From Candidatus Thorarchaeota archaeon (lineage in GTDB: Archaea > Asgardarchaeota > Thorarchaeia > Thorarchaeales > Thorarchaeaceae): a stretch of 64,000 nt of DNA. The notes below the pieces were generated by a model that saw only the letters and a program-made list of their open reading frames with translations, searched no databases and was not told the origin of the DNA. The position numbers and the translations under genes are program-made. How positions within the stretch are numbered: position 1 is the first letter of the stretch; the number at the start of each line of letters is the position of its first letter. Below, one piece after another: positions 3,117-30,578 of the stretch. The stretch lies in the NCBI GenBank assembly GCA_029855935.1, contig JAGSHN010000027.1, positions 32,001 through 96,000 on the forward strand, given 5' to 3'.

Positions 3117-3622
3117 GCAGGAATACCAATGAATCACGACACGTTGCGACAACGAACGAGGAGAGATCACTGGGAAGTGAGGGACTGATGATACCCGAGC
3201 TGGCAGTCCTATTGGTTGGGACTGGACTTGCTGCTGCGTTGAACTACTACGTGAACCGCGCGCCCGGCAGCACGCCAGAGGACTTTGCTGTAGGACCAGA
3301 GGAGCTTGATTTGTCCTGTGACTGTTGCCTCGGCCCCCTCATCATTCCGCTGATCGTAGTGGCAGTCTATGCGACCTCTTCGACCTCGTTCGAGAATCGC
3401 TGGGTCATCTACCTTCTCGGTGCAACGGCCTTCTTTGTCGTCCTGGTCGCAGGAGTGCTGGGCCGCTATCGCCGTCGTAGAGAGTGGGCAGAGATGGCAA
3501 GTCTGCTGGAGAGAGTAATTCCGACCGAGTATGCGGCACTGGGCGGCAACACAACAACATACCGACTCGATATCGGTGACGACGAGAACAACGACGAGGA
3601 GGACTCCGGCGATTGGATTTGA
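3113..3622 (+). CDS. Small membrane protein (about 3 TM) with an acidic C-terminal tail
   Basis: GTGA overlap with the PIN gene stop (alternative ATG 3188); three hydrophobic segments; tail DDENNDEEDSGDWI. Confidence 0.7.
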   Translation: MSRNTNESRHVATTNEERSLGSEGLMIPELAVLLVGTGLAAALNYYVNRAPGSTPEDFAVGPEELDLSCDCCLGPLIIPLIVVAVYATSSTSFENRWVIYLLGATAFFVVLVAGVLGRYRRRREWAEMASLLERVIPTEYAALGGNTTTYRLDIGDDENNDEEDSGDWI

Positions 3623-3722
3623 CAAGATGGCGGGATGATGATTGCTAACTCGTTGGCGACACGCGATAGGCCCAGTGGCAACGGGCAGCATATGACTGCT
3701 GTGCCGTTGGAGACCGCCGAGA

Positions 3723-4079
3723 TCATCCAATCTCGACCTTGTCCTCCTTGACATTCGGCATCTTGATTGCCATTGCCAGCGCGTCCTTGGTTGCCGTGGC
3801 CTCGAACCAGTGTATCTCGCCACGCTCGACAAGGATAACGTCGCCAGGACCAAGGTCGTAGAGCGTGTCAATGACACCGAACTGCATCTCAGTCAGGGCT
3901 ATGAACAGCTCGTCGAGAGAATTGTGAGTGTGGGCTCTCGTTCTTCCACCAGCAGGAACACGCACAAGAATCGCACCTGCAGTGTGGAGTGGCTCCGGGA
4001 ACTCCAAGTCCGCCAGATAGTATGCGACATATCCAGGACGTTTGACCGGTTCTGTCGCTGACACTAGGTATAGCTTCAC
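3723..4079 (-). CDS. Cupin-domain protein
   Basis: HTHNSLDELF and PGDVILVERGEIHWF match cupin motifs 1 and 2. Confidence 0.85.
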   Translation of the reverse strand: MKLYLVSATEPVKRPGYVAYYLADLEFPEPLHTAGAILVRVPAGGRTRAHTHNSLDELFIALTEMQFGVIDTLYDLGPGDVILVERGEIHWFEATATKDALAMAIKMPNVKEDKVEIG

Positions 4080-13693: not shown

Positions 13694-16600
13694 TCAGTCG
13701 AGGTCAAGCCCAATACTGCGCAACAGTGCCTCAAGGTCGGCCTTTGAGAGTGTCTTTGCCTGTTCGAGTATGATCTCAATCTCATCGGGACCTATGCCCT
13801 TCTGCTCCAGTCTCCTGCGCAGTTCCTCAAGCTGCTCCGGATGCTCCGCCAGGGCCGGCTCACGGACCTCCTGTACCTTACCCTCGGCCTCGGCAATGGC
13901 CTCGGCTCGACGCTGCTCCTCCTGGGCGATGACCTCCCGGAGGAAGCCGACACGCTCGCTGGGCTTCATCCTCGCGAGGTCAGACCTGAAGGCCTCAATC
14001 TCCTCGTCACCAAGACCGGTCAGCTGAGCGAGGTACTCCAGTAGCTCCTCGACCTCTGGTACCACAGCCTTGATTGGATATCCATCAACATCCTCCGACT
14101 CCTTGGCGAGGTTGACAGGAGCCAGCTCTTCATTCGCCATCTCTAGTAGGACGTCCTGCCGCGACCTCACAGGTGGTGCCTTGGGCACCTTGCCGCGCTT
14201 CAGCGCGCCGAGCATTCTGTTGATGTAGCGGATCATCTTTGGCACGCTGAGAACCTTGACATAGAGTAGGAGCAGTAGCGCAAGGATGACCAGAGAGGAG
14301 CCACCGTAGACGGCCACGTTCTGAGCAAAGATCTGCGCCTCACTTGGGCTGGAGTAGATTGTGAATGCGACCTGCTGTGAGACGAAGTCGTCCTTTGAGA
14401 GAGTGACGACAAAGTAGAACGTGCCGGGGTCAGTCACCTGCACAATGAAGACGTACGTGCCGTTGCCAGTGTTGCGTGTGAAGTCGGGGTAGAAGGTGAG
14501 ATTTCCATCGCCACTAATGCCGACCTCATAGTCGGCGTCGTCAATGCCCACGTTGTGGTCGAGGTCCCAGTACTGGACCGTTATCTCAAGACTCGCTCCT
14601 GGGTAGGTCCGAATCTCCTGAGTGGACACGTAGTAGGTCGTCAGCACCTGACGTACCGTGATCTGCACGGTCTTCACCGGGATGAGATAGTAGGGCCCAG
14701 AGAACACAAGATCGACTCGGTAGGTGTCAATCGGCAGGTCTCCGCTCACTGAGAGGAGGTAGGAACCGTTCTCCATCTGGGTCAGAGGAGCAATACCGAT
14801 TCCCTGCCAGTGAGCCTCGGCCACAAGATCAGTGATGATCTCGTCTGTAAGGTCATTGCGCACCGTGAACGCCAGAGAGGCGGTCTCATTGATAGGCAGC
14901 GAGTACGCTCCGACGCCGAGTATAGTGGCCGGAGTCCTGAGCATCACAAGGTTTAGCTCGATTGTGCCAGTCGCATAGTTTGGCACAGTCATCGACACTG
15001 ATACGATGTAGGTACGTGGATTGGTCACATTGACGACCACTGTGATCAGGTACGTGCCATTGCCGAGGTCGGTCACAACAGCGGGGCCACCAGACCAGCT
15101 CGCCGTCACTGAGGCACCGACCACGGGCTGATCGTTGTGGACGTCCCAGTACAACGTCCTGAACTGCACGGTGTCGCCGTAGTAGCCGGACAGAGTCGGC
15201 GCAGTCGAGTTGAGTACCGTGGGGACCTCGAAGACGTTGAATGACACTGTGCGTCGTGCTGTGGCGTAGCCATCCCGGGCTGCAATGACCGACAGCTCAA
15301 GACTGCCAGTGCTGAGCCGACTGGTGTTCACGGTTGTCACATATGTGCCATCAGGCTGCTCGTGGAGCAGACCTGACAGACCGCCCACCACGTAGGTCAC
15401 GCTCGCGCCCGTGACTCGTGTGCCCACAAAGGTATCGTTGTATTCAACAACGAGCTGGACAATGTCACCATAGTATGAGTTGACGAGTATCGCGCCACCA
15501 TTCAGCGTGAGCGATGTCGGTGTAGGCAATACTATGATCGTCACAGGAGTGTCGAGGAAGTCGTAGTTTGGTGCCAGAGCATGTAGTGTCGCCTGATAGT
15601 CGCCAATGGCGAATCCTGTGGAGTTGATGTAGCCGACGTAGTACCCTGGCGTACCGTTCGCATACAGGTGCGCGACTTTGTCGCCCCACAGGAGCGTGAC
15701 ATTGGCATCCTCGATCGGTACATTCCGCGCTGTGGCATTCAGGTACACCCAGAACTCGTTGAGGCCCGACGGATAGACATCCACAACAGAGGACATCGCC
15801 ACTATCGATCCCGAAGCCTTTGTGACAACCAAGGTAAAGGTTGCAGAGCGGGGCTGATAGAACTGCTTGGACGCCACGACCACAGGCTCGTAAGTACCAT
15901 ACCTCTGAGTGGCGGTGTCTAGATGAAGGACGTAGGTGCCGTTGCCAAGGTCGACAAAGGGATAGACCGTACCGTTCCACTGCAGCTCCACCGTCATCTC
16001 TGGGACGGGCGTATTCGTCAACGCCTCGACGACATCGGCGCGAATATCAATGAACTCGCCCCACTCAGCATAGTATGTGGTCTTTGATAGAGTGAGATCG
16101 ACTGTCAGTGCTGCAGGCTGGATCATCACAGTCGCTGTTGCCTGGCGGTAGTCCGTCTTCGTCGCCCACACGGCAAAATAGTACTGCTGAGCCAGCAGAC
16201 CAGTCGTATTGATGGTCAGCTGATAGACGCCACCACCTATCTCCATAATCGTGACCGGAGTGCCATACAGTGACGTCCAGTTGGTCTCCACCGTGGCCCC
16301 AGTCACAACAGTGTCGTGGTCGGAGTCGTACAACGTGACATTGACCACATGTAGGGCTCCCACAGGTAGTGAGGCTGGCGATGGTGCCTCGGTGACCAGT
16401 GTAGTCTGGATGAGCCGGATCACTGCACGGATGTCATACGCCGAGCGCTCAGCATAGTATGGATAGCCCGGGCGACTCGCAGTGAGATTGAAGAAGATAG
16501 AGCCAGTACCGAGGAACTGCGAGGTGGGTATCTCAAGGAGGTAAGAACCGTCGCCGTTGTCGGTGATGTTGTAGATGCCCGGCGAGATATTGAGGAATGC

Positions 16601-19600
16601 GACCGACACGGACGCACCGCTTATGCCAGCTCCGGAGATGAAGTCTGTGTACTCGAACACGATGGATATGTTGTCGCCGTAGGGCGTGGTACCGACAAGC
16701 GGAAACAGTATCTGAGTGGGCCGCTCGGTCGTCGTGGCATAGGTCGTCGCGTTGCGTGCTGCATAGTACGGAGGCTGGCCTGTCTTGTCGATGGTCACAT
16801 AGATGGGAACATTCGATACAAGGTGAGTGGAGTTCAACAGGGTGGAGTTGAAGCTTATCGCGTACTCCGTGCCGAGAGAGGCAAGAGAGTAGTCACCAGA
16901 GCCTATCGGTGTCTGGGCTGGTCCAAAGGTCAGAGCAATGTTCGACTTGGTGATCGATATCGCCTGGCCCGTGAGGAAGTCACTGAACTTGAACTGGAAT
17001 GTCACATTCTCAAGGAACGGTGTGTTGCCCGGCGTCTGGGTGATCAGAATCTGCGTCGGGCGCTCGCCTACACGAATGTAGATCACCCTATGTGCTGGCG
17101 CGTAGAATGGCACGCCCGACCAGCTCAAAGACACATTCACCGGGAAGGCCCCGAGGGAGCCCAGAGACTCACTATCGACGAGAATCCTGAACTGTCCGTT
17201 GCCCAGTGGCACAACCCAGTAGTCAGTGCCCTCAACGAGCGGGCTGACGGATGAGTTTGAGCAGGACACCACCACAGTTGCTCCGTCGATGGGAGAGCCA
17301 TCATTGTCGTCTGTGTACGTGACCACGAAGGTCGCATTCTCAAGGTAGTACGTCAGATCGGGTATCTCATATGCAAGCTGGGTGGCCCGCTCTGAAACAG
17401 CGAACCCGAACACATCGCTGGCATCCGCCTCATAGTTCGAGCCAGTGTAGACAATGGTCGCATTGAGAGTGAAGACGCCATCCGATGGGAACCCTGTGGT
17501 GTTGAGAACGACCTCGTACTGCCCGTTCCCAAGATACGTCACCGTGTAGTAACCTGCCAATGAGGCGTTCAGCGTCAGTGTTCCCGTCATTCCACTGGAC
17601 GACCCAGAGATCAGGTCGGTGTAGGTGAAGACCACAGTCACGTTCATTCCCCACTGGCCCGGCTCGAAGGAACCGTGTGTCAGCTGAGTGTTGCGAAGCG
17701 TGACCCGCAGGGTGAACGACTGGTTTGCCAAGTCCCTGTAGTAAGGCTCACCGCTCCACCCGATGTTCAGGTGCAGCGTGAACGTGCCGACGCCTCCCAG
17801 AGACTGTGTGTCGATCAGCATCGTGAAGAACCGGCTGGAGTCATCGTAGGACAGTGAGTAGGAGACCCAGCCCTCCGCCAGAGAGATCGAGATGGCTGAG
17901 CTGTTGGCAATCCGCTCCGACGAGAGCGAGTCAACGTAGCTGAAATAGAAAGTGGCACTCTCACCAAAGGGCGCAGGCTCAATCGGCACGTAGTCCAGAT
18001 ACGTGAGCCGTTCAAGCACCACGAGGCTGACGGTCATGCTCCTGTTCTCATACAGGGGGGCCTGACCAGAGCGCCACGTGAAGTTCAGTCTAAACTCGAA
18101 TGTCCCAGTTATGAGGAATCTTGATGTGTTGAGCCTGAACTCGTACGTCCCGGGCGATCCACCGAGCTCTGATACGACGAAGTCGGCCTGCGTCACAGGG
18201 TGACCAGCAGTGATTGGTGTGATGTAGACGAACACGTCTCCTGTGGAGTTGGATATGCGGGTTGAGTTGACCTTGTCCCAGTAGACCACCGTGAACGTGA
18301 AGTTCTCAAGATAGTACTTTGCCGTGGGCGCCTGTTCCAAGTAGATGCTCGTGTCAGTACCGAGGATACGCACCGATGTATGGATTGTCCCGTTGTAGTA
18401 CGTCGGTACCGGGCCGGTCCACCGGACTTCGATGGTGATGTCTTTCCAGCCAATCGTTCCCCACTGGTCAGCAGAGAATGTGATGTTGTAGTGGCCTGTG
18501 CCCAGCGTCGAACTCGAGACGCTCCACGTGAGAGTGGCCGTCGGCGACGAAACGGTGATACGGACATACCCGGTGAGGTTGTCGATGCCCACGCCGAGAT
18601 CCAGATCGCGGTACTCCACGAGCACGATCACAGTGCCCGTGTATGGTGTCTGGTCCACAGGCTTGTCAAGCACAAAGAGTGTGTCGTGGCTTCTGATCTG
18701 CACCTCGACAATGAATGTGTGATTCTGATAGTTGGGTCGTGATACGTCGAACTGCACAGTGTAGAAGCCGCCCGGTGAATTGACCGGGTCGTCGTCCTCC
18801 GTGAACAGTGTTATCTCGTACTCACCGGGCGAGACCTCAATGACCGTGTAGTTCTTCTCGCCAGTGGTGTGGAAGCTGGTCCAGTTGCAGACAATCGAGT
18901 TGTTGGCGCCAGTCACCGGCACATTCGAGTCCGTGTCTGTCCACGTCAGACGGAACGAACGCGACTCGCCCACAGGTATTGAGAGCTGATTGGCCGTGTA
19001 GGAGATGGTATTGTAGATCTCGCGTACGTCAACGTACAGGATGAGGCTCTTTGCCACAACAAACGGTGCTGTGGCCTGTACGAGTATGGGGTATTCTCCT
19101 ATCGGGATGCCAGCCGTTGAGAGCGTCACATCATAGAGGCCACCACCGACCTCAGCCACTGTATACGAGGCAGTCCAGTTGCACGTGATGGTTGCACCTG
19201 TTATGCCTGTCCCGTTCACGTTGGTATAGTTGACTCTGAATGTCTGGTCAAGACCAACGGCATTTGAGATTCCAGGATAGTCAGGTGACTCTAGGGTGGC
19301 GTCATAGTAGACGTTGAAGATGATCTGGGCAGTGGAGACGTCATACGCAGTGCGCGACCACGATATGTCCATTGTGAACTGGCCCTTGCCGGGCACAGTG
19401 CTTGTGTCAATGACCTTCGTGTACTCACCGTTGCCGCTATCATCGAATGTACCTGACCCACCAGCCCACGTGTAGCTCATAGTCCCACCCGGGACCAGCA
19501 CGTTGCTGTCTGTGTCATTGACCTTCAGAATCACTAGGACGAGGTTCTCATAGGTGGTGTTGGTCACCCACGTGGACACCGCGTCCGAGAGATATGACAT

Positions 19601-21439
19601 CACAATATTCGAGGTATGTCTGACAGTAAACGGTCTCTTGAAGAAACCGACATTCTGAACAGAGCCGCTTGCCCCCTCGTCGGTGGCATAGGCCTGAACC
19701 ATCCAGTTGCCAGCCGGAGCTGTGGAGCCGTCCATGACAAATACCGAGGAGGTGGCATAGCCCAGAGCGTCCACTGTGGCGTTCTCGGTGTACCAAGTGC
19801 TGCCGTCGGGAGCGAATATCGTGATGTTGACAACCGAGTTTGTGTACTGTGAGCCAGCGTAGACCCGGACCTGGCTGGAGTTGCCCGCACGCAGCTCGAC
19901 AGTGCGCGACCACGTCGCGGTGTTCGGATCATACAACTTAAGGTCTGTGATCATATTGGGCGCAGTGCTCAGTATGCGCCAGTACCCGTACCGACCTGCC
20001 TCGGTCGTCACCTCGTATGCTGAGACGTTCAGGTACCCGTCACCGGGGTCGCCACCACTCCACCCACTGGTGAGATTCTGCGAACTCGTCAGAGGTCGAG
20101 ATACGTTGAACACGTCTCGCGTCGAGGGAATGGTCATATTGAAGAAGTACCTGTTGACGTAGCCCTCGGGGATGTCAGCGTAGAAGTAGTTGGCAAACTG
20201 CGCGTCGGTGCCATTCTGCACCGTAAACGTCTCACCGTAGGCCGTCGGCGAGATGTCGTAGACCGTCAGCGCGTTGTGCCTGCGGGCGAACATATTGATG
20301 TTGACGTCAAACTCCACGATGATGGGCCTGTTAGGTGTGGGATTGGTCGGTGTCGGCCACCACGAGAAGTTCATCGGAATGGGGTTGCCTGTCCACGGCA
20401 TCTGTGGGTCCTGAGTCAGAGAGCCGGTGCCAGTCGTGGTGCCATCGAGGACCGACTCTTCATTCATCTTCAGGTTTACATCTGACGGATTGGCGAGCGT
20501 CTTCACGTAAAGCTCGACATTGTCGAACTTGGCCCTTGGAGCGATGTCAGGATCGTACCCTACGTTCTGCTTGCTCCAGAGGCCCACCTCAATAGACACA
20601 GAGGGCAGGGAGAAGATGTCGCTGGGCACTGACACGAGGCCGGAATCAAACCATGTCTCCTCAGCCCCAATGTCATCGAAGACGAGCTGCCAGACCATAG
20701 AGCCCTCGACACGAGCGTACACTGCAAAGGAACCAGTCATTCCATAGTGGGTGTCATCCCGAGTGTCTGCCCAGTAGTCAAGCCGTAGACCCGCCCAGAC
20801 CACGGGGCCTCTGTCTACAGTCATTGTCTGTGTCGCGTAGGCATAGTCCCCAGCGTCATAACCGTACGGCGCGGACTGCGAGTTGCTGTTGATCTCGACA
20901 TCCACGCACGGTCCGCCACTGGCGTCGCCTGTGGAGTTGTATGACGCTGCAGGAGTGCTGGAGCCACCAGCACCAGTGGTAGCGTAGGTCCAGTCATTCT
21001 GGGTCGCAAAGTCCGGACTATGGACCCACGTCCTGTTCTCGGTGAGCTGAGTCACCTGCAGCTCCGCGTGGTACGCCTCCCAGTCCGGGCCCAGAGACAC
21101 GTTGACCGCAGAGCCGACCGTCGTGTTGTCGGTGTTGTAGCGCAGCGAGACCGCGTCTACAATGGTCGTGCTGTTGCCGTATTCGGCACCAACCCGCGGG
21201 GACGCTATGCCATTCCATTCCACCCAACCCTGGTCTGAGAGAACGAACCTGTGAAGCTCCTCGCCAGGTCCAACCTCGATAGTCTGTCCATTGCCAATGT
21301 CAACTACGCGGTTGGCCCCCTTCTGTCCGTCGGTGGCAGAGGACGGCATCTTGGCCATCTGACCGGCCGAGAGCACAGACACTGTCAGGAACACGAGCAA
21401 CAGGGCAAAGACCACTATCTTCCGCTTCATCTCTCTCAC
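13694..21439 (-). CDS. Giant single-pass cell-surface glycoprotein A: signal peptide, beta-rich head, about 17 Ig-like modules, TM, cytoplasmic tail of about 185 aa
   Basis: Signal peptide KRKIVVFALLLVF; repeated 100-125 aa beta modules (Y.D......I.GA.V...G.G.Y.+.+NT); many N-x-S/T sequons; TM SLVILALLLLLYV; start GTG 21439 or ATG 21430. Confidence 0.9.
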   Translation of the reverse strand: MREMKRKIVVFALLLVFLTVSVLSAGQMAKMPSSATDGQKGANRVVDIGNGQTIEVGPGEELHRFVLSDQGWVEWNGIASPRVGAEYGNSTTIVDAVSLRYNTDNTTVGSAVNVSLGPDWEAYHAELQVTQLTENRTWVHSPDFATQNDWTYATTGAGGSSTPAASYNSTGDASGGPCVDVEINSNSQSAPYGYDAGDYAYATQTMTVDRGPVVWAGLRLDYWADTRDDTHYGMTGSFAVYARVEGSMVWQLVFDDIGAEETWFDSGLVSVPSDIFSLPSVSIEVGLWSKQNVGYDPDIAPRAKFDNVELYVKTLANPSDVNLKMNEESVLDGTTTGTGSLTQDPQMPWTGNPIPMNFSWWPTPTNPTPNRPIIVEFDVNINMFARRHNALTVYDISPTAYGETFTVQNGTDAQFANYFYADIPEGYVNRYFFNMTIPSTRDVFNVSRPLTSSQNLTSGWSGGDPGDGYLNVSAYEVTTEAGRYGYWRILSTAPNMITDLKLYDPNTATWSRTVELRAGNSSQVRVYAGSQYTNSVVNITIFAPDGSTWYTENATVDALGYATSSVFVMDGSTAPAGNWMVQAYATDEGASGSVQNVGFFKRPFTVRHTSNIVMSYLSDAVSTWVTNTTYENLVLVILKVNDTDSNVLVPGGTMSYTWAGGSGTFDDSGNGEYTKVIDTSTVPGKGQFTMDISWSRTAYDVSTAQIIFNVYYDATLESPDYPGISNAVGLDQTFRVNYTNVNGTGITGATITCNWTASYTVAEVGGGLYDVTLSTAGIPIGEYPILVQATAPFVVAKSLILYVDVREIYNTISYTANQLSIPVGESRSFRLTWTDTDSNVPVTGANNSIVCNWTSFHTTGEKNYTVIEVSPGEYEITLFTEDDDPVNSPGGFYTVQFDVSRPNYQNHTFIVEVQIRSHDTLFVLDKPVDQTPYTGTVIVLVEYRDLDLGVGIDNLTGYVRITVSSPTATLTWSVSSSTLGTGHYNITFSADQWGTIGWKDITIEVRWTGPVPTYYNGTIHTSVRILGTDTSIYLEQAPTAKYYLENFTFTVVYWDKVNSTRISNSTGDVFVYITPITAGHPVTQADFVVSELGGSPGTYEFRLNTSRFLITGTFEFRLNFTWRSGQAPLYENRSMTVSLVVLERLTYLDYVPIEPAPFGESATFYFSYVDSLSSERIANSSAISISLAEGWVSYSLSYDDSSRFFTMLIDTQSLGGVGTFTLHLNIGWSGEPYYRDLANQSFTLRVTLRNTQLTHGSFEPGQWGMNVTVVFTYTDLISGSSSGMTGTLTLNASLAGYYTVTYLGNGQYEVVLNTTGFPSDGVFTLNATIVYTGSNYEADASDVFGFAVSERATQLAYEIPDLTYYLENATFVVTYTDDNDGSPIDGATVVVSCSNSSVSPLVEGTDYWVVPLGNGQFRILVDSESLGSLGAFPVNVSLSWSGVPFYAPAHRVIYIRVGERPTQILITQTPGNTPFLENVTFQFKFSDFLTGQAISITKSNIALTFGPAQTPIGSGDYSLASLGTEYAISFNSTLLNSTHLVSNVPIYVTIDKTGQPPYYAARNATTYATTTERPTQILFPLVGTTPYGDNISIVFEYTDFISGAGISGASVSVAFLNISPGIYNITDNGDGSYLLEIPTSQFLGTGSIFFNLTASRPGYPYYAERSAYDIRAVIRLIQTTLVTEAPSPASLPVGALHVVNVTLYDSDHDTVVTGATVETNWTSLYGTPVTIMEIGGGVYQLTINTTGLLAQQYYFAVWATKTDYRQATATVMIQPAALTVDLTLSKTTYYAEWGEFIDIRADVVEALTNTPVPEMTVELQWNGTVYPFVDLGNGTYVLHLDTATQRYGTYEPVVVASKQFYQPRSATFTLVVTKASGSIVAMSSVVDVYPSGLNEFWVYLNATARNVPIEDANVTLLWGDKVAHLYANGTPGYYVGYINSTGFAIGDYQATLHALAPNYDFLDTPVTIIVLPTPTSLTLNGGAILVNSYYGDIVQLVVEYNDTFVGTRVTGASVTYVVGGLSGLLHEQPDGTYVTTVNTSRLSTGSLELSVIAARDGYATARRTVSFNVFEVPTVLNSTAPTLSGYYGDTVQFRTLYWDVHNDQPVVGASVTASWSGGPAVVTDLGNGTYLITVVVNVTNPRTYIVSVSMTVPNYATGTIELNLVMLRTPATILGVGAYSLPINETASLAFTVRNDLTDEIITDLVAEAHWQGIGIAPLTQMENGSYLLSVSGDLPIDTYRVDLVFSGPYYLIPVKTVQITVRQVLTTYYVSTQEIRTYPGASLEITVQYWDLDHNVGIDDADYEVGISGDGNLTFYPDFTRNTGNGTYVFIVQVTDPGTFYFVVTLSKDDFVSQQVAFTIYSSPSEAQIFAQNVAVYGGSSLVILALLLLLYVKVLSVPKMIRYINRMLGALKRGKVPKAPPVRSRQDVLLEMANEELAPVNLAKESEDVDGYPIKAVVPEVEELLEYLAQLTGLGDEEIEAFRSDLARMKPSERVGFLREVIAQEEQRRAEAIAEAEGKVQEVREPALAEHPEQLEELRRRLEQKGIGPDEIEIILEQAKTLSKADLEALLRSIGLDLD

Positions 21440-24400
21440 TCCTCCTCACCCTTCAGCTGCCGCAGCAGCGCGTCTATCTCGGCCTTGGTCAGGGCCTTCG
21501 CCTGTTCCACAATCAGATCTACCTCATCAGGCTCGATACCGAGGCCGAGTAGCTCTTGTCGAAGCTGCTCCAGCTCCTCCTCTGTCAGCGCCCGTGCCGC
21601 CTCAGGTGGCGCCGCCTCCTCGACTTCGGGCGCGGCTGCGACCTCCTTGGCCCGTCTCGCCCGCTCCTGCCTTATGACCTCACGTAGGAACCCAGCACGC
21701 TCGCTGGGTCTCATCTGGTCGAGGTCTGCACGGAGTGTGTCGATGTCAGACTCCGTGAGGCCGACGAGCTCAGCGAGCTCTGCCAAGAGAGCCTCAACAT
21801 CCAAGGCGGACACATCAACCGTCGACGGGGCCACGTCCTCATCCGTCTTCGTTATGTTGACGGGCTCCACCGACTCGTTCATCATATCAAGAATCATTGT
21901 TCTACGGTCACGCACAGGGGCGGCGGTGGGTACACCACCCTTTCGGAGCACACTCTCCATGTGGCGAATCTTGCGCACGAGAGGCGGCACCGAGAGGACC
22001 TTGATATAGAGCGCCGCAAGACCACTCAGCACAAGAATTGCAGCAGCGAGATAGCCGAAGGACGTGAACAGGGCCTGACGCTCGGGCGTCATCACTGTAT
22101 ACACCACGGCCGTGTACTCCGCCGCCTCGTGATCGCTGACGGACAGACGGATGTGAATCTCGTACGTGTTGAGTCCCGGACCAACAAACCCAAAGACATA
22201 GGTCCCGTTGCCCAGGTCGCGATTGAGGTCGGACACCAGTTCAAGTGTCGTCCCCTCGGTGCTGTTGACGGCACCGGGCAGCGGCCTGTCGTGATCAAGG
22301 TCCCAGTATGTCACTGTCACAGTGAACTCCTCACCCTCGTAGAATGTCGATGGATGACTTGCGACCCGCAGCTCGGTGTGGATGAGCCTTATTGTCATAC
22401 TGCTCCTGATCTCAGCGACAGAGTAGTTACCACGGGTCATGGTGACACGGATGGCGTAAGGTGTAGACCGGACCTCCAACCTCTCAATCCCCGTCGCCTC
22501 AGGACCGAAGGCATAGGAGCCGTTGCCCATTGGGACGAGGCTCACTGCTCCAAACTCCCAGATTGCTGCAGCAGTGCAGTTGGTCACGGGCCGGTCATTG
22601 AGTGTGTCCCACAGGGTGAACACGACAGTGTAGTCATCTCCCACTGGGAAGTCCACAGTGGTCGTGCCACGAATCTCCGTGGGTATCGGTCGCACCACCA
22701 ACCTGACTGAGCTAAACGCCGACTCGTACCTGTCACGAGAGAAGGCGAGGAATATGTCGTAGGCAAGAGGACTTGCTGGTTGAATCGTGGAGTTGATTGT
22801 CAGGACGTAAGTGCCGTTGTGGAGATCCACAAGCTGACCTTGTGTCAGACCTATCTCATAGATGGCTGTGGCATTGGTCACTCCCACATCATTGTGAGTG
22901 TCCCAGAACAGTAGGCGGAACGTAGCATTCCTGCCGTAGTACACCTCTACCTGACCACTACCAAGGACATCAATTCTCGTGGGAATACGTAGTACAGTGA
23001 CCACAAGCTGTGTGGTCGCGGGGGTGTGAGCAGCCTTGCTGGCCGTCACAGTCACGACCCAGCCTCTGACATCCAGATTGGCAGTCGGCACAATAGCGGT
23101 GTAATACCCAGGTTGTGTGGCAGGCTGCATCTGGCCCTCAATGTCTGCGATACGGTAGGTCACGTTTGCCTCAGTCACTGGCACCCCGAGATCGGTGTTG
23201 TTATAGTACACCGTGAGGTTGAACGTATCGCCATAGGTGACCGACAGACTTGTGATGCCCTCAAAGGCCAATAGTTCAGTTGATGCCTCTCTCACCTCAA
23301 TCGAGATTGACGAGCTGGCACTACCGTAGTTCGTCGATGTGGCTTGGAACGTCAGCTGATAGCTCCCGACAGGGACATCCGGTACCGACAGCAGGCCCTC
23401 GTACCGAGCAGTAGTGACGTTCCACACCAAGTAGCCACTCCCGCCAGCCCAGCTGAAGGATATTGATCCGACTGGTATCGACGAACCGTTCGCCGCCACG
23501 GTGTAGTAGGCCAGCAGCTCAGTGGTCTGGCCAAGAGTCAGTGTTGACTGACCTATGGACACCACAAGTGAGGCGGGCACCTTCCCTATCCTGATGTCGA
23601 TGTCGACATCACGGGTCTCGTAGTTGGTGAGCTCCGAATGAAACGTGAGTCTGTAGTCTCCAGCCGAGTAGAGTTTGGTCCTGATTGTAACTTGGTAGAG
23701 ACCACCACCGACCTCCGTCAGCACGTAGATGTCGCCAACCATCTTCAGTGTGACGGAGGCACCAGTCACGGGACTGGCATCTCGGAGATCGGACAGCGTG
23801 ACATTGAAGGTCACGAGGTCGCCGTAGATGATGCTCACAGGCGAGAATGTCACGTCGAGGTCCACAGGTACTGGACTGAGGGCGAAGTCCGCCGTCACTG
23901 TCTTGTTGTAGTGGAGATGACGGGAGGCATTGACATGAAACTCGTAGACGCCAGCAGTGAGCCCAGATGTGTCTATTGTCAAGTGATAGATTCCGTTCCC
24001 CACCTCCGCTATCGAGGAGCTGGTGCCATAGAGCGAGGTCCAGTCAGTGACCACAGTGGCACTCTCGATTCCGAGACCTGTCAGTACGTTCGTGAAGTTT
24101 ACATTGAGAATGACTGTGTCGCCGGAATAGTAGGTCACACCAGCTGGGACCGTCACCTCAAGGCTCGTGGACACAGGGTTCACAATGACAGAGAAGAAGA
24201 CATTCGTCTTGTTCTGATAGAACGGCGAGCCGGTGGAGGTGATGTTGAAGACGAAGTGATATCGTCCTGTCGAGCCAAAGGTGCTGGTGTTGACTCTTAT
24301 CTCATAGATGCCGCCACCAAGGTCCAGCACCCAGCTCTGAATGGGAGTCACATTCAAGCATTTGACGGTCACGGTGGCACCCGGAATCCCAGCGCTGGTG

Positions 24401-27400
24401 TCGTAGTCCGCAAACTCGATCAGTGCAGTGGCGTTGTACATGATGTCTGCGGGCGGCGTGGAGACCACTGCAACTTGCGAGGGGCGTCCCGTGATGGTCG
24501 CCTCCGTGGTGGTTGTGGAATTAGAATAGTACGGTGCAGTGTCACCCCAGTAGAACTGAACCTCGATGGGGTGACCCTCGACTAGAACAGAGGTTAGTAT
24601 CGTGGAGTTCAAGGAGATACGGTATCCGGTAGCAGTTAGGCTGAGGGCGTAGTCACCTGCGGAGAGCGGTATGTGAGATGCACCGTGAAACAGCAACAAG
24701 ACATCCTTGCTGAGAGTGACAGACGAACCGTCCAGACCGTCCGTCGCAGCCACAACAAAGGTGACATTGTTGAGAAACGGCGTGTTGAGAGGCGACCTCA
24801 CCACAGACAGGTGGAGGGGACGTCTTGATACCTCGATGGCCACAGAGAGCGTTCTCTCGAGGTAGTAGGGCTGTCCGGTGTAGTTCGCCACTATGTCGAT
24901 TGTGTATGAGCCGAAATTCCCAAGGGCCTGTGTCGAGATTCTCACACGATATCGTCCAGAACCGAGATAGTCAACCCAGTAGTTCACGCCCAACTGGAGC
25001 CCCGTTGCTGCAGTCGTACAGGAGGCATAGATCGATGCGCCAGCGATGCCGACATTCGTTGTGTCATCGAAGTAGAAGACTGTGACGTTGGCCTGCGTGA
25101 GATACGGCGCGGGACCCGGCAGCTCGCTTGTGAGCTGAGTCCTGCGTTGGACCACTGTCAGATAGAATGAGTCTGTGGCGTTCTCACAGTAGCGCGTCCC
25201 ACCATAGGTGATGCTGACATTGATGAGGTAGGTTCCCAGCTGACCGAAGGCACTCGTATTGAGAACCAGCGTGTATGTACCGTCAGCATTGTCCTCGACC
25301 GAGTAGTAGTCTTTCAACCAGGAGTCAAGCGTGAGATTGCCACCGTTCATTCCCGCGGTTGAGTAGTCATCGAGATCCCTATAGGTGAACAGCAGGGTGA
25401 GATTCGCGGCAAACTGAACGGACGTGTAGCTACCGTGCACAAGCTCTGTGTGGCGGTATCTCACGGTTATCGGTACCTCTACAGAGGTCCGGTTTTGGTA
25501 GTAAGGTGTGCCGACCCAAGTTATGTTGATGTGGAACACGCGAGTCCCTGGTGCCCAGGACGAGGTGTCTATCTCCAGATAGAACTCACCTGTTGCGTCG
25601 CCGCCGTAGTATAGTGTGTACGTCACAGCCTCAACAATCTCGATGTGCAGGCTTGAGGAGTTGAGAATCGGAGCGCCAGTGAGCGAGTCACGATACGTGA
25701 GGGTGAGATTGACCAGCTCGTCGTACGGTGTCACGGGCAACGGCGTCCACTCAACGGTCGTCTGTCTCTGTGTGGCACGCACTGTGACAATCAGAGTCTT
25801 GTTCTCGTACAACGGTAGAGCGCCCTTTGTCCAGTTGAACCATACCTCAAGGTCGCAGGATATTGGCCCACTGAGGAAGGCCGAGTCGAACTCGAACCAG
25901 TACTCACCCGGTTGATTGTCGGGGTCGACCTCGTAGATCATCATCTTTGACTGATCAAGGGACTGGCCGGGTGTGAGCACGGTCACAGTGATATGGACAT
26001 TTCCTGCATACGAACCCGTCGAGTTGACGATGCCAGTCTGTGCGCCGACATCGTAATAGACCAGCGAGAAGGTGATGTTCTCATCATACGGCGTCATAAC
26101 AGGGTTCACACCGATGAAGAGCTCGGCCGGGGTGGCTGTCACGACCACGGCGACCTCATCAAGATAGAGCGTCTCGTTGGTGTACTTCTCAGTGGGTCCT
26201 GTCCAGTTGGCGTGGATTGTCACGTTCTTTCCGCCAATCGAGCCCCACGAGTCAGCAGGGATGAGGACCAAGTACTCTCCCGGTGCGGAACCGTTGGTGA
26301 CGGTGTACGGCAACGAGGGGATGTCCGCGACTGCATAGATATAGACATAGTAACCTGTGGCGGAGCCGTTCTCTATCCCAACCTCCGCATCGACATCCCA
26401 GTACATCACTCTGATCTCAATCGTCCCCGTGTAGGGTGTGGGTTCAACCGGATTGACAAGATACAGCGATGTCAGATGCGTCCTCAGTTCGAGTTCAATA
26501 TAGAATGTATGGTTCTGAACACCGCCCTGCTCCACATCCACCTGCACCGTGTACAACCCGAGCGTGTCAGTGTCGACAGAGTAGATTGAGATGTTGTACT
26601 CGCCAGGAGTGGACGTCTCGACGACGGTGTAATGACCGTGTGAGCCAGTCCAGTTCAGCGTGAAGGCGCTCTCTGCACCTGATATTGGGAGGTTGTGGTC
26701 GGTGTCCCGATACGTGACCGTAAATGATGCGACGTAGCCAACCGGTAGAGAGAGATGACTTGTTGAGGGGGACGCCGACGTGAACAGCTCTCGAACCTGA
26801 ACAGACAGCTCAATCGTTCTGCGCTCCACAAAGTCCTTTGACGCCGTTATCTGGACCACGTACGTCGCCAGTGGGGCGGTACTCGTGTCGAGCGACAGTG
26901 TGTAGTAGCCCGGATTCCCTGCCTGTGGAGTGACCGTGTAGGTGCCGAGTGTCCAATTGCAGGTTATCGTGGCCCCAGTGATGCCGTTACTCCTCTGATC
27001 CTCGTAGTACAATGTGAGGTCAGCCGAATATCCCTTTGGAACATCGATGCCCGGCGCGTCGGGTGAGAGCAAGTCACTCAAGTAGATCACATTGATAGTA
27101 AAGGTGGCCGAAACGGAATCGTAGTATCCCTTTGTCCATTGCAGGGCCACGTCGTATTGCCCATTGGATGCCAAGAGCGATGTGTTCAACGCAATGTTGT
27201 ACTCGCCAGTACCGAGGTCATTCATAGTACCCGACCCGGCCGCCCAGCTGTATGCCATCACACCCTCTGGGAGAAGTTCGCCGTTGTCCGAGTCGTTGAC
27301 TCGCACCTGGAGAAGAACGACATCGCCATAGGTCACGTTGACACTCCACGTCGTGCGACCCTCAACAGGATATGTCACAGACATGACGGTACCGTGCTGG

Positions 27401-30120
27401 ATGCTGAAGCCTCGCCTGAAGTACCCAACATTATGGATCTCTCCTGCGGACGCGCTGTCGTTGACGAAGGCCTGGACCTCCCACGGGCCAACTGAGGCGT
27501 TGTAGGCTCCCAGAGTCACGGTGTCCGTCACCGCATATCCGTTCGAGTCAACCGTTGCAACCATTGAAGTCCACGGATTTCCGAGCGGGTCGTATATCGT
27601 GAAGCCAACAATGTCGTTGGCGTAGGCTGGGGACAGCGTGGCTCTGAACCGTGTGACATCATTGGCACGAAACGTCCTGGTGCGCACCCACGCCGAACCG
27701 TCCCAGACCTCAAGGTCGCTTATCATATTCGGTGACCAGCCCTTCAGATACCAGAAGCCGTTCTGAGCGGTGGTGGTCACCTCGAAGGCTGACACATTCA
27801 GAAGCCCATCTCCCGGGTCTCCATAGCTCCATCCATACGTCAGGTTCGTGTATCTGTCAGTGGGCTGCCCCACGTGATCGATGTCACGGTTGAGCGGAAT
27901 TGACACGTTGAAGAAGAACTTGGGCTCATAACCACCGGGAACAGCTGCGTAGTGGTTTGTTTCCCAGCGGACCGCCGTAGCATTCTCGACGTAGTAGCTG
28001 TCACCCGATGCGAAGTTGGCTGTGTTGTAGACCGTATCGAGGCCATACCTGCGAGCATATGCCGTTACACTCGCATCCATTGTAACCCGAACCTCAAGAT
28101 TCGGGACCGGAGGCAGTGGGACCGGGGTCCACGTGAAGTTCGCATAGGCCTTACCCTTGGTCCACGGCGTCGGTGGACGATACGTGACAACGCCCTCGCC
28201 ATACACCGGGGTCGAGCCCTGCATCACGTTCTGAACAGGAACTCCGTCCATCGTCAGGTTGACCTGCTCTGGAGTGGCCTTGGCCTTGATGTACAGGACT
28301 ATGTTGTCGAACCGACCCTCGGGCAAGATATCATTATATCGATACCACTCCTTTTGTGTGACCCTCAGGCCTATCATCAGGGGAACGTTCGGCAGCGACA
28401 GGGATGTGTAGTCCACCGGCACCAAGCCCGTGGAGTACCACGTGTTATCATCAGCGATGTAGTCGAACTTGGAACTCCAGAGATAGGAGCCGCCGTAGTC
28501 GGGATCGCCGACAGAGACGAAGAGCTCGAAGAAGCCGGTCATATACGATCCCCATCCGCGGCAGTCAGCATAGTAATCGAGCATGAGGCCGGCCCACGTG
28601 ACCTCCCCACGATTGATTGTCAGATCCTGTCGGACGTACGCCTTCTCACCCGGGCTATACCAGAAGCCGTACAGGCCAGAGACCGGGTCGGAGTGATAGT
28701 ATCCTCCAATCTGAGCGATGATCGCCCCGTCTCCAGCGGCGTGTCCATTCGGGGACCAGGTGATAGACGTGCGAGATGTGCCATCGCGTTCGACTGTATA
28801 CACGTAGCCACTGGCGTTCACGGCAACTCCATAGATGAATCTGAACTGGGCGTTTCCTGTGCCATCGCCACCCCAACGTCCCGAGTACGAACCAGTCTGT
28901 GTAAAGTACTGCACACGGTCGTTGCCCATGTCAGCCACGTAGATGGTACCATCAGAGGCAACATCAACGTCAGCAGGATCTCGGAAGGACCCTGCCGATC
29001 CACTACCAGCGAAGCTTCCGCCCGAACCGACAAGGCTGAGGTAGGTCCCCTGATAATTGAACCTCTGAACCCTGTTGTATGTGCTGTCGACAACAATTAC
29101 CTCATCATTGTTTGGATTGACGCCAATTCCCGTTGGGGCGTTGAACTGACCAGTACCAGTCCCCTGAGAGCCCCAAGAGCCTACAAAGTTGTAGTTAGAG
29201 TCAAAGTACTGGACACGGTCATTGCCCATGTCCGTGACATAGATGTATCCGTTGACGCTACCTACCGCCACGTCAACCGGACCGTGGAATTGACCGTTGC
29301 CCGTACCGGGACTGCCAAATTCTGCAATGAAACTACCAGAGGAGTCGAAGACTTGGATTCTGTCGTTACCGTGGTCCACAACATACACGTGGCCCGAGGA
29401 GTCCACATCGATGCCGAGCGGTCTGTCGAACTGACCCTGACCTGTGCCGAATGATCCCCACTGTGTGACGAAGTTTCCTGAGGCATCAAAGACCTGAATG
29501 CGATGGTTGTCAGTGTCCGCGACGTACACATACCCAGAGGAGTTGATTGATATGCCCCACGGATTGAGGAACTGTGAGGAGGAGGATCCGCGGGATCCCC
29601 ACTGACCCTGATAGTTGCCCGTAGAGGTGAAGAACTGAACACGGCTGTTGCCCTGAAAGCCGCTCACTGTCCGGTTTGTCCGGAAGGTCCAGTCGTCCTC
29701 GTTGGCGAACCCGTAGTTGACCACCCAGCTCCTGTTCTCCGCTATGTTGCTCACTCTCGACGTGACCTGATACGACTCCCAACCAGAGCCCACGGGGACT
29801 GTCCGCACGGCTGTACTTCTCGCCTGCGTGCTCGGGTCGTAGACCATACCAATGTCCGAGAAGACATCTGTCCGATTACCGTACTCGGCCACGGACAGAG
29901 GGTCCCCTACGCCTGTCACCGAGGTGGGCGCCGTTGAGATCACGTATTTGTAGAGGACCTCATCAGGACCTACCTCCACATACTGACCATCTCCGACCTC
30001 GACCATTCTTGGTCCGGCAGAACTCTGCTGGCTGGCAGGCGGGAGGGGCATGCTTGTCAGGACCGACAACACAAGGGGCACGAATACCAGCACCAGGCTC
30101 AGGCTCCGAACTCTCTTCAT
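21436..30120 (-). CDS. Giant single-pass cell-surface glycoprotein B: paralog of A with an inserted 6-bladed NHL beta-propeller
   Basis: ATG 30120 (MKRVRSLSLVLVFV signal peptide, GGAGG SD); NHL repeats; about 17 Ig-like modules; TM LAAAILVLSGLAALYI; stop overlaps the start of gene A. Confidence 0.9.
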   Translation of the reverse strand: MKRVRSLSLVLVFVPLVLSVLTSMPLPPASQQSSAGPRMVEVGDGQYVEVGPDEVLYKYVISTAPTSVTGVGDPLSVAEYGNRTDVFSDIGMVYDPSTQARSTAVRTVPVGSGWESYQVTSRVSNIAENRSWVVNYGFANEDDWTFRTNRTVSGFQGNSRVQFFTSTGNYQGQWGSRGSSSSQFLNPWGISINSSGYVYVADTDNHRIQVFDASGNFVTQWGSFGTGQGQFDRPLGIDVDSSGHVYVVDHGNDRIQVFDSSGSFIAEFGSPGTGNGQFHGPVDVAVGSVNGYIYVTDMGNDRVQYFDSNYNFVGSWGSQGTGTGQFNAPTGIGVNPNNDEVIVVDSTYNRVQRFNYQGTYLSLVGSGGSFAGSGSAGSFRDPADVDVASDGTIYVADMGNDRVQYFTQTGSYSGRWGGDGTGNAQFRFIYGVAVNASGYVYTVERDGTSRTSITWSPNGHAAGDGAIIAQIGGYYHSDPVSGLYGFWYSPGEKAYVRQDLTINRGEVTWAGLMLDYYADCRGWGSYMTGFFELFVSVGDPDYGGSYLWSSKFDYIADDNTWYSTGLVPVDYTSLSLPNVPLMIGLRVTQKEWYRYNDILPEGRFDNIVLYIKAKATPEQVNLTMDGVPVQNVMQGSTPVYGEGVVTYRPPTPWTKGKAYANFTWTPVPLPPVPNLEVRVTMDASVTAYARRYGLDTVYNTANFASGDSYYVENATAVRWETNHYAAVPGGYEPKFFFNVSIPLNRDIDHVGQPTDRYTNLTYGWSYGDPGDGLLNVSAFEVTTTAQNGFWYLKGWSPNMISDLEVWDGSAWVRTRTFRANDVTRFRATLSPAYANDIVGFTIYDPLGNPWTSMVATVDSNGYAVTDTVTLGAYNASVGPWEVQAFVNDSASAGEIHNVGYFRRGFSIQHGTVMSVTYPVEGRTTWSVNVTYGDVVLLQVRVNDSDNGELLPEGVMAYSWAAGSGTMNDLGTGEYNIALNTSLLASNGQYDVALQWTKGYYDSVSATFTINVIYLSDLLSPDAPGIDVPKGYSADLTLYYEDQRSNGITGATITCNWTLGTYTVTPQAGNPGYYTLSLDTSTAPLATYVVQITASKDFVERRTIELSVQVRELFTSASPSTSHLSLPVGYVASFTVTYRDTDHNLPISGAESAFTLNWTGSHGHYTVVETSTPGEYNISIYSVDTDTLGLYTVQVDVEQGGVQNHTFYIELELRTHLTSLYLVNPVEPTPYTGTIEIRVMYWDVDAEVGIENGSATGYYVYIYAVADIPSLPYTVTNGSAPGEYLVLIPADSWGSIGGKNVTIHANWTGPTEKYTNETLYLDEVAVVVTATPAELFIGVNPVMTPYDENITFSLVYYDVGAQTGIVNSTGSYAGNVHITVTVLTPGQSLDQSKMMIYEVDPDNQPGEYWFEFDSAFLSGPISCDLEVWFNWTKGALPLYENKTLIVTVRATQRQTTVEWTPLPVTPYDELVNLTLTYRDSLTGAPILNSSSLHIEIVEAVTYTLYYGGDATGEFYLEIDTSSWAPGTRVFHINITWVGTPYYQNRTSVEVPITVRYRHTELVHGSYTSVQFAANLTLLFTYRDLDDYSTAGMNGGNLTLDSWLKDYYSVEDNADGTYTLVLNTSAFGQLGTYLINVSITYGGTRYCENATDSFYLTVVQRRTQLTSELPGPAPYLTQANVTVFYFDDTTNVGIAGASIYASCTTAATGLQLGVNYWVDYLGSGRYRVRISTQALGNFGSYTIDIVANYTGQPYYLERTLSVAIEVSRRPLHLSVVRSPLNTPFLNNVTFVVAATDGLDGSSVTLSKDVLLLFHGASHIPLSAGDYALSLTATGYRISLNSTILTSVLVEGHPIEVQFYWGDTAPYYSNSTTTTEATITGRPSQVAVVSTPPADIMYNATALIEFADYDTSAGIPGATVTVKCLNVTPIQSWVLDLGGGIYEIRVNTSTFGSTGRYHFVFNITSTGSPFYQNKTNVFFSVIVNPVSTSLEVTVPAGVTYYSGDTVILNVNFTNVLTGLGIESATVVTDWTSLYGTSSSIAEVGNGIYHLTIDTSGLTAGVYEFHVNASRHLHYNKTVTADFALSPVPVDLDVTFSPVSIIYGDLVTFNVTLSDLRDASPVTGASVTLKMVGDIYVLTEVGGGLYQVTIRTKLYSAGDYRLTFHSELTNYETRDVDIDIRIGKVPASLVVSIGQSTLTLGQTTELLAYYTVAANGSSIPVGSISFSWAGGSGYLVWNVTTARYEGLLSVPDVPVGSYQLTFQATSTNYGSASSSISIEVREASTELLAFEGITSLSVTYGDTFNLTVYYNNTDLGVPVTEANVTYRIADIEGQMQPATQPGYYTAIVPTANLDVRGWVVTVTASKAAHTPATTQLVVTVLRIPTRIDVLGSGQVEVYYGRNATFRLLFWDTHNDVGVTNATAIYEIGLTQGQLVDLHNGTYVLTINSTIQPASPLAYDIFLAFSRDRYESAFSSVRLVVRPIPTEIRGTTTVDFPVGDDYTVVFTLWDTLNDRPVTNCTAAAIWEFGAVSLVPMGNGSYAFGPEATGIERLEVRSTPYAIRVTMTRGNYSVAEIRSSMTIRLIHTELRVASHPSTFYEGEEFTVTVTYWDLDHDRPLPGAVNSTEGTTLELVSDLNRDLGNGTYVFGFVGPGLNTYEIHIRLSVSDHEAAEYTAVVYTVMTPERQALFTSFGYLAAAILVLSGLAALYIKVLSVPPLVRKIRHMESVLRKGGVPTAAPVRDRRTMILDMMNESVEPVNITKTDEDVAPSTVDVSALDVEALLAELAELVGLTESDIDTLRADLDQMRPSERAGFLREVIRQERARRAKEVAAAPEVEEAAPPEAARALTEEELEQLRQELLGLGIEPDEVDLIVEQAKALTKAEIDALLRQLKGEEE
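28781..29650 (-). repeat. Six NHL repeats (beta-propeller) within giant protein B
   Basis: Six units of about 47 aa: G..G.G.GQF..P.G+.V...G.+YV.D..N.R+Q.F. Confidence 0.92.
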
Positions 30121-30578
30121 CTGACAACCTCCGGGTCGCGCACGCTCGACCTTCGGTATGCCCACAAGGGGCCTCCGCGGTTAGACAATCTTCAACCCGC
30201 CAATCCGCCCTAAAAAAGGTGCTGCGCGACAGATGGTTCACAAAACAGTCAGGATTGACAAAAAATCGAAACTCTGTGGTGGGCCTGGGAGCATTGCCCA
30301 GAGCAGTGAACGTAGCCGCAGCTTCAATCCACAGACCGGGGGCAGATTCTTCTCGCAATCATCGGCGTGGCGCCCAGTGCGCGACGGCTCCCAGCAACTA
30401 GTCAGGTCATTCGAATAATGTTAGTCTCGATTCCCGGACGGGGGGTTCGAAAAATACTGGGACGTAGAAACCGTCGTGGAGGGCCCACTGATGTATTCTG
30501 GCGATAGGCCGACGTATGGACTGGGCTCACGCCGAATCTCAGGTCAATCTTCTCAGACGCCCTGATGACGCCTAGAAG

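Follow-up and report, generated by a model that had tools for sequence, protein, structure and literature searches.

Asgard archaea are the closest known relatives of eukaryotes, and the ways in which their cell surface communicates with the actin, ESCRT and GTPase systems of the interior are of corresponding interest. Among described systems, the closest in design to the proteins considered here are the cytoplasmic tails of integrin beta and of classical cadherins, which serve the docking of adaptors; in the giant surface proteins of Thorarchaeota, we infer such a docking from the build and distribution of the tail. The HAMP domain (PF00672), which stands directly after a transmembrane (TM) helix and consists of helix, connector and helix, is another system for comparison, as are the three-helix interaction modules such as the protein A Z domain, KIX, the N-terminal module of MZT/GCP, RecX HTH1 and UBA-like domains. 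Three-helix bundles are a generic fold. For archaea it is unusual that all giant surface proteins of a lineage keep a folded tail.

The window analysed, a whole stretch of 64,000 nucleotides from a Candidatus Thorarchaeota archaeon, was found by a search of sequencing runs in one DNA run only, a hydrothermal vent metagenome, which is its probable source; no RNA run is listed as containing it, a result without bearing on expression. Two large open reading frames (ORFs) lie there in tandem on the minus strand, and the listed start of A, a GTG, is overlapped by the stop codon of B; translation of A could equally begin at an ATG located three codons downstream. The genes of interest are as follows.

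13694–21439, minus strand: giant surface protein A, 2581 aa, with a signal peptide, a sequon-rich ectodomain, a single TM helix and a type A tail
21436–30165, minus strand: giant surface protein B, 2909 aa, of the same plan as A plus an NHL propeller insert, which A does not have, and with a type B tail
30579–32756, minus strand: upstream gene of an exoprotein, 725 aa, anchored in the membrane by its C-terminus and carrying an HExxHxxGxxH motif; context, outside the tail

Both giants have an N-terminal signal peptide, one C-terminal TM helix and a very long ectodomain in which Thr, Ser, Asn and Tyr abound. The tail extends for about 188 residues after the TM helix and is rich in Glu, Lys and Arg. 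An earlier inspection of the letters, here called the sequence-only reading, had marked the segments 13694–14260 and 21436–22000 as tails; they do start just past the TM helix and end at the stop codon, and the consensus strings quoted there are all found. N-x-S/T sequons number 67 and 66 in the ectodomains of A and B against 0 and 2 in their tails, lysine makes up 1% of residues outside against 4–6% inside, and the first 44 tail residues have net charges of +8 and +6. Together with the signal peptides, this asymmetry of sequons, lysine and charge shows that the tail of both giants is cytoplasmic, in agreement with the former argument that it is basic and hence inside. In fact, the charge of the tail is dipolar, from +6 to +9 in its membrane-proximal part and from -19 to -22 in the remainder. 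In the same genome, numerous large surface ORFs besides A and B stop 7–12 residues past the TM helix, and so the contrast once drawn with ordinary short basic tails holds in the source genome. A C-terminal sorting signal of the PGF-CTERM/archaeosortase or sortase type, with a motif, a TM helix and a short basic end, is not seen, about 188 folded residues following the membrane helix instead.

The tail was modelled by AlphaFold2 from an alignment of 67 tails, residue 1 of the model being residue 2371 of A. In the model (mean pLDDT 89.4), a helix-loop-helix of basic character next to the membrane (juxtamembrane, JM) is followed by a conserved extended segment and then by two three-helix bundles, M1 and M2, which are acidic and separated by a low-confidence linker. 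Its helices span residues 2–27 (TM), 31–44 and 57–72 (JM, with a 12-residue loop between them), 93–104, 108–119 and the long 123–153 (M1) and 164–176, 181–193 and 196–206 (M2), while residues 73–92 are non-helical. Projected onto the window, the parts of both tails are located as given below.

14249–14317, minus strand: TM helix of A, about residues 2375–2397, corresponding to model helix 2–27
14114–14248, minus strand: JM module of A, residues 2398–2442; basic amphipathic helix, G-K-x-P turn and second helix, net charge about +8
14054–14113, minus strand: conserved non-helical stretch of A before M1, residues 2443–2462
13871–14053, minus strand: M1 of A, residues 2463–2523; three-helix bundle, its third helix long; most conserved region of the tail
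13841–13870, minus strand: variable acidic linker of A, pLDDT 58, far longer in type C tails
13712–13840, minus strand: M2 of A, residues 2534–2576; second three-helix bundle
21994–22062, minus strand: TM helix of B, approximate
21853–22008, minus strand: JM module of B, about residues 2720–2771
21643–21810, minus strand: M1 of B, about residues 2786–2841
21451–21591, minus strand: M2 of B, about residues 2859–2905

Among the columns that are invariant or nearly so in the 67 tails are four of JM, namely a Pro and an Arg where the module begins, a second Pro in the turn and a second Arg ahead of the second helix, and, in M1, M-x-x-S-E, F and V-I-x-Q-E. Polar residues (R, R, S-E, Q-E) are invariant along with those of the core. 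The first helix of JM is amphipathic (hydrophobic moment, muH, 0.5–0.7). A and B both possess the near-invariant P, R, P, R of JM, the signatures of M1 and the Q-A-K of M2 in a C-terminal position after the TM helix, and both match the HMM of each module with E-values of 1e-15 to 1e-25.

The proposal that the tail contains a duplicated small helical domain gained from this analysis. Two three-helix bundles were modelled, and profile-profile alignment of M1 with M2 was colinear over 38 columns and all three helices (probability 71%, score 24.6), above all of 60 column shuffles, the best of which scored 19.6, and above the reversed profile (8.0). An earlier run with 27 sequences gave a shorter match. 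A common origin of M1 and M2 has moderate support from these profiles. M2 occurs in 1–4 copies, and the 2–4 tandem copies in some relatives indicate that it is a duplicable unit; variable copy number is usual in interaction modules.

A and B follow the type-I single-pass plan, and conservation is higher in their tail than in the ectodomain. The two tails share 45% identity (90/198, E 4e-42) against 35% for the whole proteins. Aligned globally, the two proteins show 47.6% identity in the tail and 34.4% in the ectodomain; no tail-length window of the ectodomain reaches the tail identity, and the membrane-proximal stalk falls to 18–30%, which bears out the impression that the tails are better conserved than the stalks. 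Against three orthologues from other genomes, tail and ectodomain identities were 57 and 52%, 54 and 42%, and 48 and 38%, respectively, and M1 was the best-kept part of the tail (57–74%).

Searches for relatives gave no family for the tail in Pfam and NCBIfam, whether whole proteins or tails were used. No Pfam family reached its own cut-off in 27 tails; RecX_HTH1 produced recurrent sub-threshold rows in 16 of them (best E 0.002), and UBA, SAM and death families were absent among the first 25 of the 68 Pfam families listed at E<=10. The tail profile found no relative among PDB sequences, the rows obtained being spurious (designed TIM barrels, polycystin-2, E>=0.001). Foldseek with the tail model gave nothing below E 1 in the PDB, VIA-align against 48,161 chains gave only generic helical rows (best Z 4.4–7.3, within noise for helical bundles), and the ESM Atlas gave TM<=0.27 by shape and no usable relative by features; UBA, SAM or death folds surfaced in none of these three fold searches. 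Nor did the tail match any enzyme or DNA-binding family in Pfam or among PDB sequences. M1 and M2 resemble the three-helix interaction modules in general shape and size (about 45–60 residues), but all scores against them are at noise level and the family cut-offs are not reached. ESCRT MIM1 and WH2-like motifs, sought by eye in M2, were rejected for their spacing. No result pointed to actin, ESCRT or kinases as partners. A limited full-text search of the literature found no description of the tail. The word "uncharacterised" thus remains appropriate, since neither a Pfam or NCBIfam family, nor a PDB sequence relative, nor a convincing fold relative was obtained. Comparison by HMM with Asgard and eukaryotic proteins, proposed in the sequence-only reading, returned only Asgard-type proteins (Thorarchaeota or Promethearchaeota where named) and no eukaryotic relatives. 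That reading had staked itself on two points, and on both it fared well: the tail matched no known non-signalling family, and it is more conserved than the extracellular modules.

A third copy of the tail was found in the source genome, in a 2897-aa ORF on another contig, with a much longer linker between M1 and M2 (type C). A profile built from three sequences, run against 1.84 billion representative proteins, matched 140 clusters (91 below 1e-30), nearly all of them C-termini of large proteins; the cluster members that were looked up and bear an organism name belong to Candidatus Thorarchaeota. Scanning of one genome per prokaryotic species with a 27-row alignment gave 165 stretches, and the titles of the 80 loci kept from these name Thorarchaeota, Promethearchaeota, one "Hermodarchaeota" MAG (two loci) and an uncultured archaeon. 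The phylum was sampled with 201 Asgard genomes, which are related and not independent samples. The full tail occurs in 42 of 43 genomes of the family to which the window belongs, with 2–15 matches in each, in ORFs of 2000–6200 aa, and three orthologous types of tail can be distinguished, A, B and the long-linker C. Judging by these searches, the full JM-M1-M2 tail is confined to Thorarchaeota. It is a composite handle common to all giant Ig-repeat surface proteins of this group, whatever their ectodomain.

JM taken alone has a much wider distribution. Its profile matched 120 of the 201 Asgard genomes, 67 of the 85 high-quality ones and 14 of 27 families, with no match in some well-sampled families (0/21, 0/10, 0/7 and 0/7), and its P, R, P, R residues hardly vary throughout the phylum. 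A broader profile brought up further Asgard families, in which JM is combined with divergent helical modules, and in one large Asgard family the entire tail is JM and little more, 60–80 residues. Elsewhere in Asgard archaea the parts beyond JM are short, polyacidic or of other kinds; in a 2354-aa ORF on contig 19 of the source genome, for instance, the tail begins like JM and continues with about 200 acidic residues. The association of JM with varied distal parts, or with none, indicates that JM and the bundles are separable. JM is accordingly an old and widespread element of Asgard single-pass surface proteins, to which M1 and M2 were added in Thorarchaeota and a few neighbours. The sequence-only reading was right about the uncharacterised nature of the tail but treated as one unit what is a composite of a phylum-wide JM and lineage-specific bundles.

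The source genome also encodes a small protein that has JM and no ectodomain.

3562–3990 of another contig of the source genome, contig 27, minus strand: headless JM paralogue, 142-aa ORF, matching the JM model with E 4.5e-5

Alignment of the headless family with the tail profile (hhalign) spans 60 columns that start in JM and reach the extended stretch (probability 96.4%, E 1e-9), and the later helices look M1-like by eye. Of the genomes sampled from the family, 39 of 41 and 40 of 43 have exactly one copy of the headless paralogue. Its co-occurrence with the full tail is weak evidence because these kin genomes are not independent. Outside the family, the headless profile gave one match in a sister family and otherwise only the JM region of the surface proteins of one other family. 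Some orthologues begin with a TM helix, and others, including that of the source genome, with a short hydrophobic-basic N-terminus. An AlaX-like gene directly follows the headless gene in nine genomes; in seven of these nine, where the locus reaches far enough, a GlmU-like gene comes next. Metagenomic proteins were also found that consist of JM and M1, or carry M1 alone behind other N-terminal parts. The dissection into JM, M1 and M2, the phylum-wide distribution of JM, the rejection of a HAMP assignment (see below) and the headless paralogue are new here.

In our opinion, the tail may be understood, tentatively, as a docking device. JM, a basic amphipathic helix-turn-helix, would lie on or near the acidic inner face of the membrane and form the base of the tail; its membrane binding is suggested by charge and amphipathicity. 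M1 and M2, acidic bundles related by duplication and held on flexible linkers, would serve as docking modules, by which every paralogue (A, B and C, 2–15 per genome) could plug into one shared cytoplasmic partner, and this docking would couple the cell surface to the interior. The headless paralogue, with its JM and M1-like part and, in some genera, a TM anchor, might take the same site as an adaptor or a competitor. The presence of the same tail on giant ectodomains of three types, in almost every sampled genome of the family, is to be expected if an intracellular partner is shared. No conserved cytoplasmic gene was found in the A/B operon at the locus. The conservation of the tail would equally fit self-association or a role in biogenesis.

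Self-association is an unlikely alternative. On this view, the translationally coupled A and B would be paired through their tails inside the cell, or many giants clustered there in the same manner, and the tails would have no further partner. The stop-start overlap of the two genes speaks for it, as does their tandem arrangement, seen again by match coordinates in many genera of the sampled genomes; type C genes are often in tandem as well, three separate orthologous tail types are maintained, and self-association is common for helical bundles and amphipathic helices. However, the sole type C giant of the source genome carries the same tail without an adjacent mate, and the colinear ectodomains could equally do the pairing. 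Besides, the headless paralogue and the soluble proteins composed of JM and M1 argue for a function independent of ectodomain pairing. Co-folding of TM-less tails of A and B, with their own alignments and without control runs, gave no answer (score 0.00), which weighs on neither side as regards binding.

We assign a similarly low probability to a role in biogenesis, sorting or retention, in which JM would be read by insertion, quality-control or localisation machinery and the bundles would assist, for example by holding a chaperone during export and glycosylation of the ectodomain. JM always stands directly after the TM helix, it is the sole part common to many Asgard families and often makes up the whole tail of 60–80 aa, and its invariant P, R, P, R resemble a recognition motif; in addition, the headless gene lies in a conserved string with a gene for a GlmU-like sugar-nucleotide enzyme. 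This string may be a mere conserved order within one family, though, and many large proteins exported by this organism do without JM, their ends consisting of a few basic residues; JM is therefore not needed for export as such. Folded and strongly conserved M1 and M2 also exceed the needs of a signal.

The assignment of JM to HAMP domains, as a divergent form relaying movements of the ectodomain to M1 and M2, is very improbable. JM and HAMP have much in common: the position right after the TM helix, two helices of similar length with a connector (about 12 residues in JM), a Pro at the beginning and a Gly in the turn, and one cluster member even carries the NCBI name "HAMP domain-containing". 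Nevertheless, the Pfam model PF00672 gave no row at E<=10 either in 27 tails or in that named member, nor any match at E<=10 in the whole source genome, where all the controls responded, and in 61 Asgard genomes it matched only ordinary proteins of 336–900 aa. The comparison of the JM profile with 15 genuine Asgard HAMPs (hhalign) gave a probability of 15.5% over 16 columns and placed helix 1 of JM onto helix 2 of HAMP. The second helix of JM is not continuous with an output helix, as the non-helical residues 73–92 of the model show, and JM is found too in proteins that have no TM helix. On these four grounds (the null result with PF00672, the non-colinear profile match, the absent output helix and the TM-less proteins) a HAMP identity of JM was rejected.

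Release of the tail as in Notch, the neighbouring metalloprotease-like protein shedding the ectodomain and the freed tail acting in the cytoplasm, is just as improbable: the anchored HExxHxxGxxH protein is encoded directly upstream here and in at least 10 related genomes, but it is only a putative protease by its motif, with no Pfam match, no intramembrane protease was found tied to the A/B locus, and the tail, strongly acidic past JM, matched neither DNA-binding nor enzymatic families.

Returning to the docking of a common partner, a broader version of it may be formulated, which we consider less probable than either self-association or sorting. JM would be a phylum-wide plug, tying Asgard single-pass surface proteins to one conserved intracellular machinery, such as a membrane skeleton or trafficking, and Thorarchaeota would have added M1, M2 and a headless regulator. 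If so, it would be an archaeal outside-in linkage, analogous to the receptor-adaptor links of eukaryotic adhesion and older than they are. As a practical outcome, JM, M1, M2 and the 142-aa paralogue are concrete baits for an intracellular partner. Such a partner, if it exists, would provide the first defined link between surface and cytoplasm in Asgard archaea; otherwise, the tail still deserves a name, as a domain family not described before.

Summarizing the comparison with known systems, other Asgard giants with polyacidic inner tails share the overall plan and JM with A and B and differ in the distal part. HAMP domains agree with JM in position, layout and length, but neither the family profile nor the profile-profile comparison recognises JM as HAMP, no output helix continues from it, and it occurs without a TM helix too. 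To the tails of integrin beta and classical cadherins no relation was found by sequence, by profile (1.84 billion proteins), among PDB chains or by fold, and the likeness is one of design only: a huge glycosylated ectodomain of repeats, a single TM helix, then a basic stretch near the membrane, and a tail that is shared by many paralogues and less variable than the ectodomain. A difference lies in what stands behind the membrane, namely short linear motifs or a catenin-binding segment in integrins and cadherins and folded helical bundles in the giants of Thorarchaeota.

Parts of the cytoplasmic tail are also found in the source genome outside the giant pair, in two proteins encoded on other contigs than the window:

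contig 27, 3562-3990, (-) strand (locus L076): headless paralogue of 142 aa, corresponding to the tail's basic juxtamembrane (JM) module plus an M1-like portion, without a giant ectodomain
contig 19, 17941-25002, (+) strand: further giant ORF of 2354 aa, with a JM-like motif at the start of its tail

The headless paralogue is single-copy and kept throughout the family, and some of its orthologues possess an N-terminal TM helix. An AlaX-like gene follows it directly in nine related genomes, in seven of which a GlmU-like gene comes next. In the giant of contig 19, the JM-like motif is followed by about 200 acidic residues, which are probably disordered.

The extreme C-termini of the tails (13694-13711 in the window, and the corresponding ends in relatives) are conserved within each tail type, being L-G-I-x-L-D in type A and L-G-G-D-E-x in type B, and may serve as terminal peptide ligands. 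Type C tails, for example those of loci L003 and L009, contain a conserved N-D-T sequon within the second JM helix despite the cytoplasmic location of the tail; this sequon is probably structural and not a glycosylation site. One member of the tail family, P0146, is named 'HAMP domain-containing protein' by NCBI, a naming that was not reproduced when this protein was searched with the Pfam HAMP model. Copies of the second bundle, M2, were also found in three metagenomic ORFs (P0137, P0106 and P0139) after unrelated N-terminal parts, one of them hydrophobic; such ORFs could be either genuine gene fusions or artefacts of chimeric assembly.

Besides the tails, the following features were recorded in the window, the propeller being present in paralogue B only, not in A:

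28781-29650, (-) strand: NHL six-blade propeller, residues ~170-460 of B (Pfam NHL, E 1e-26)
30579-32756, (-) strand: 725-aa ORF, anchored at its C-terminus, with a signal peptide and the metzincin-type motif HExxHxxGxxH
44542-49041, (-) strand: further large ORF of 1499 aa

No Pfam match was obtained for the 725-aa protein. Its gene directly precedes the giant pair upstream, and the same placement of a HExxHxxGxxH gene was found in at least 10 related genomes from several genera.
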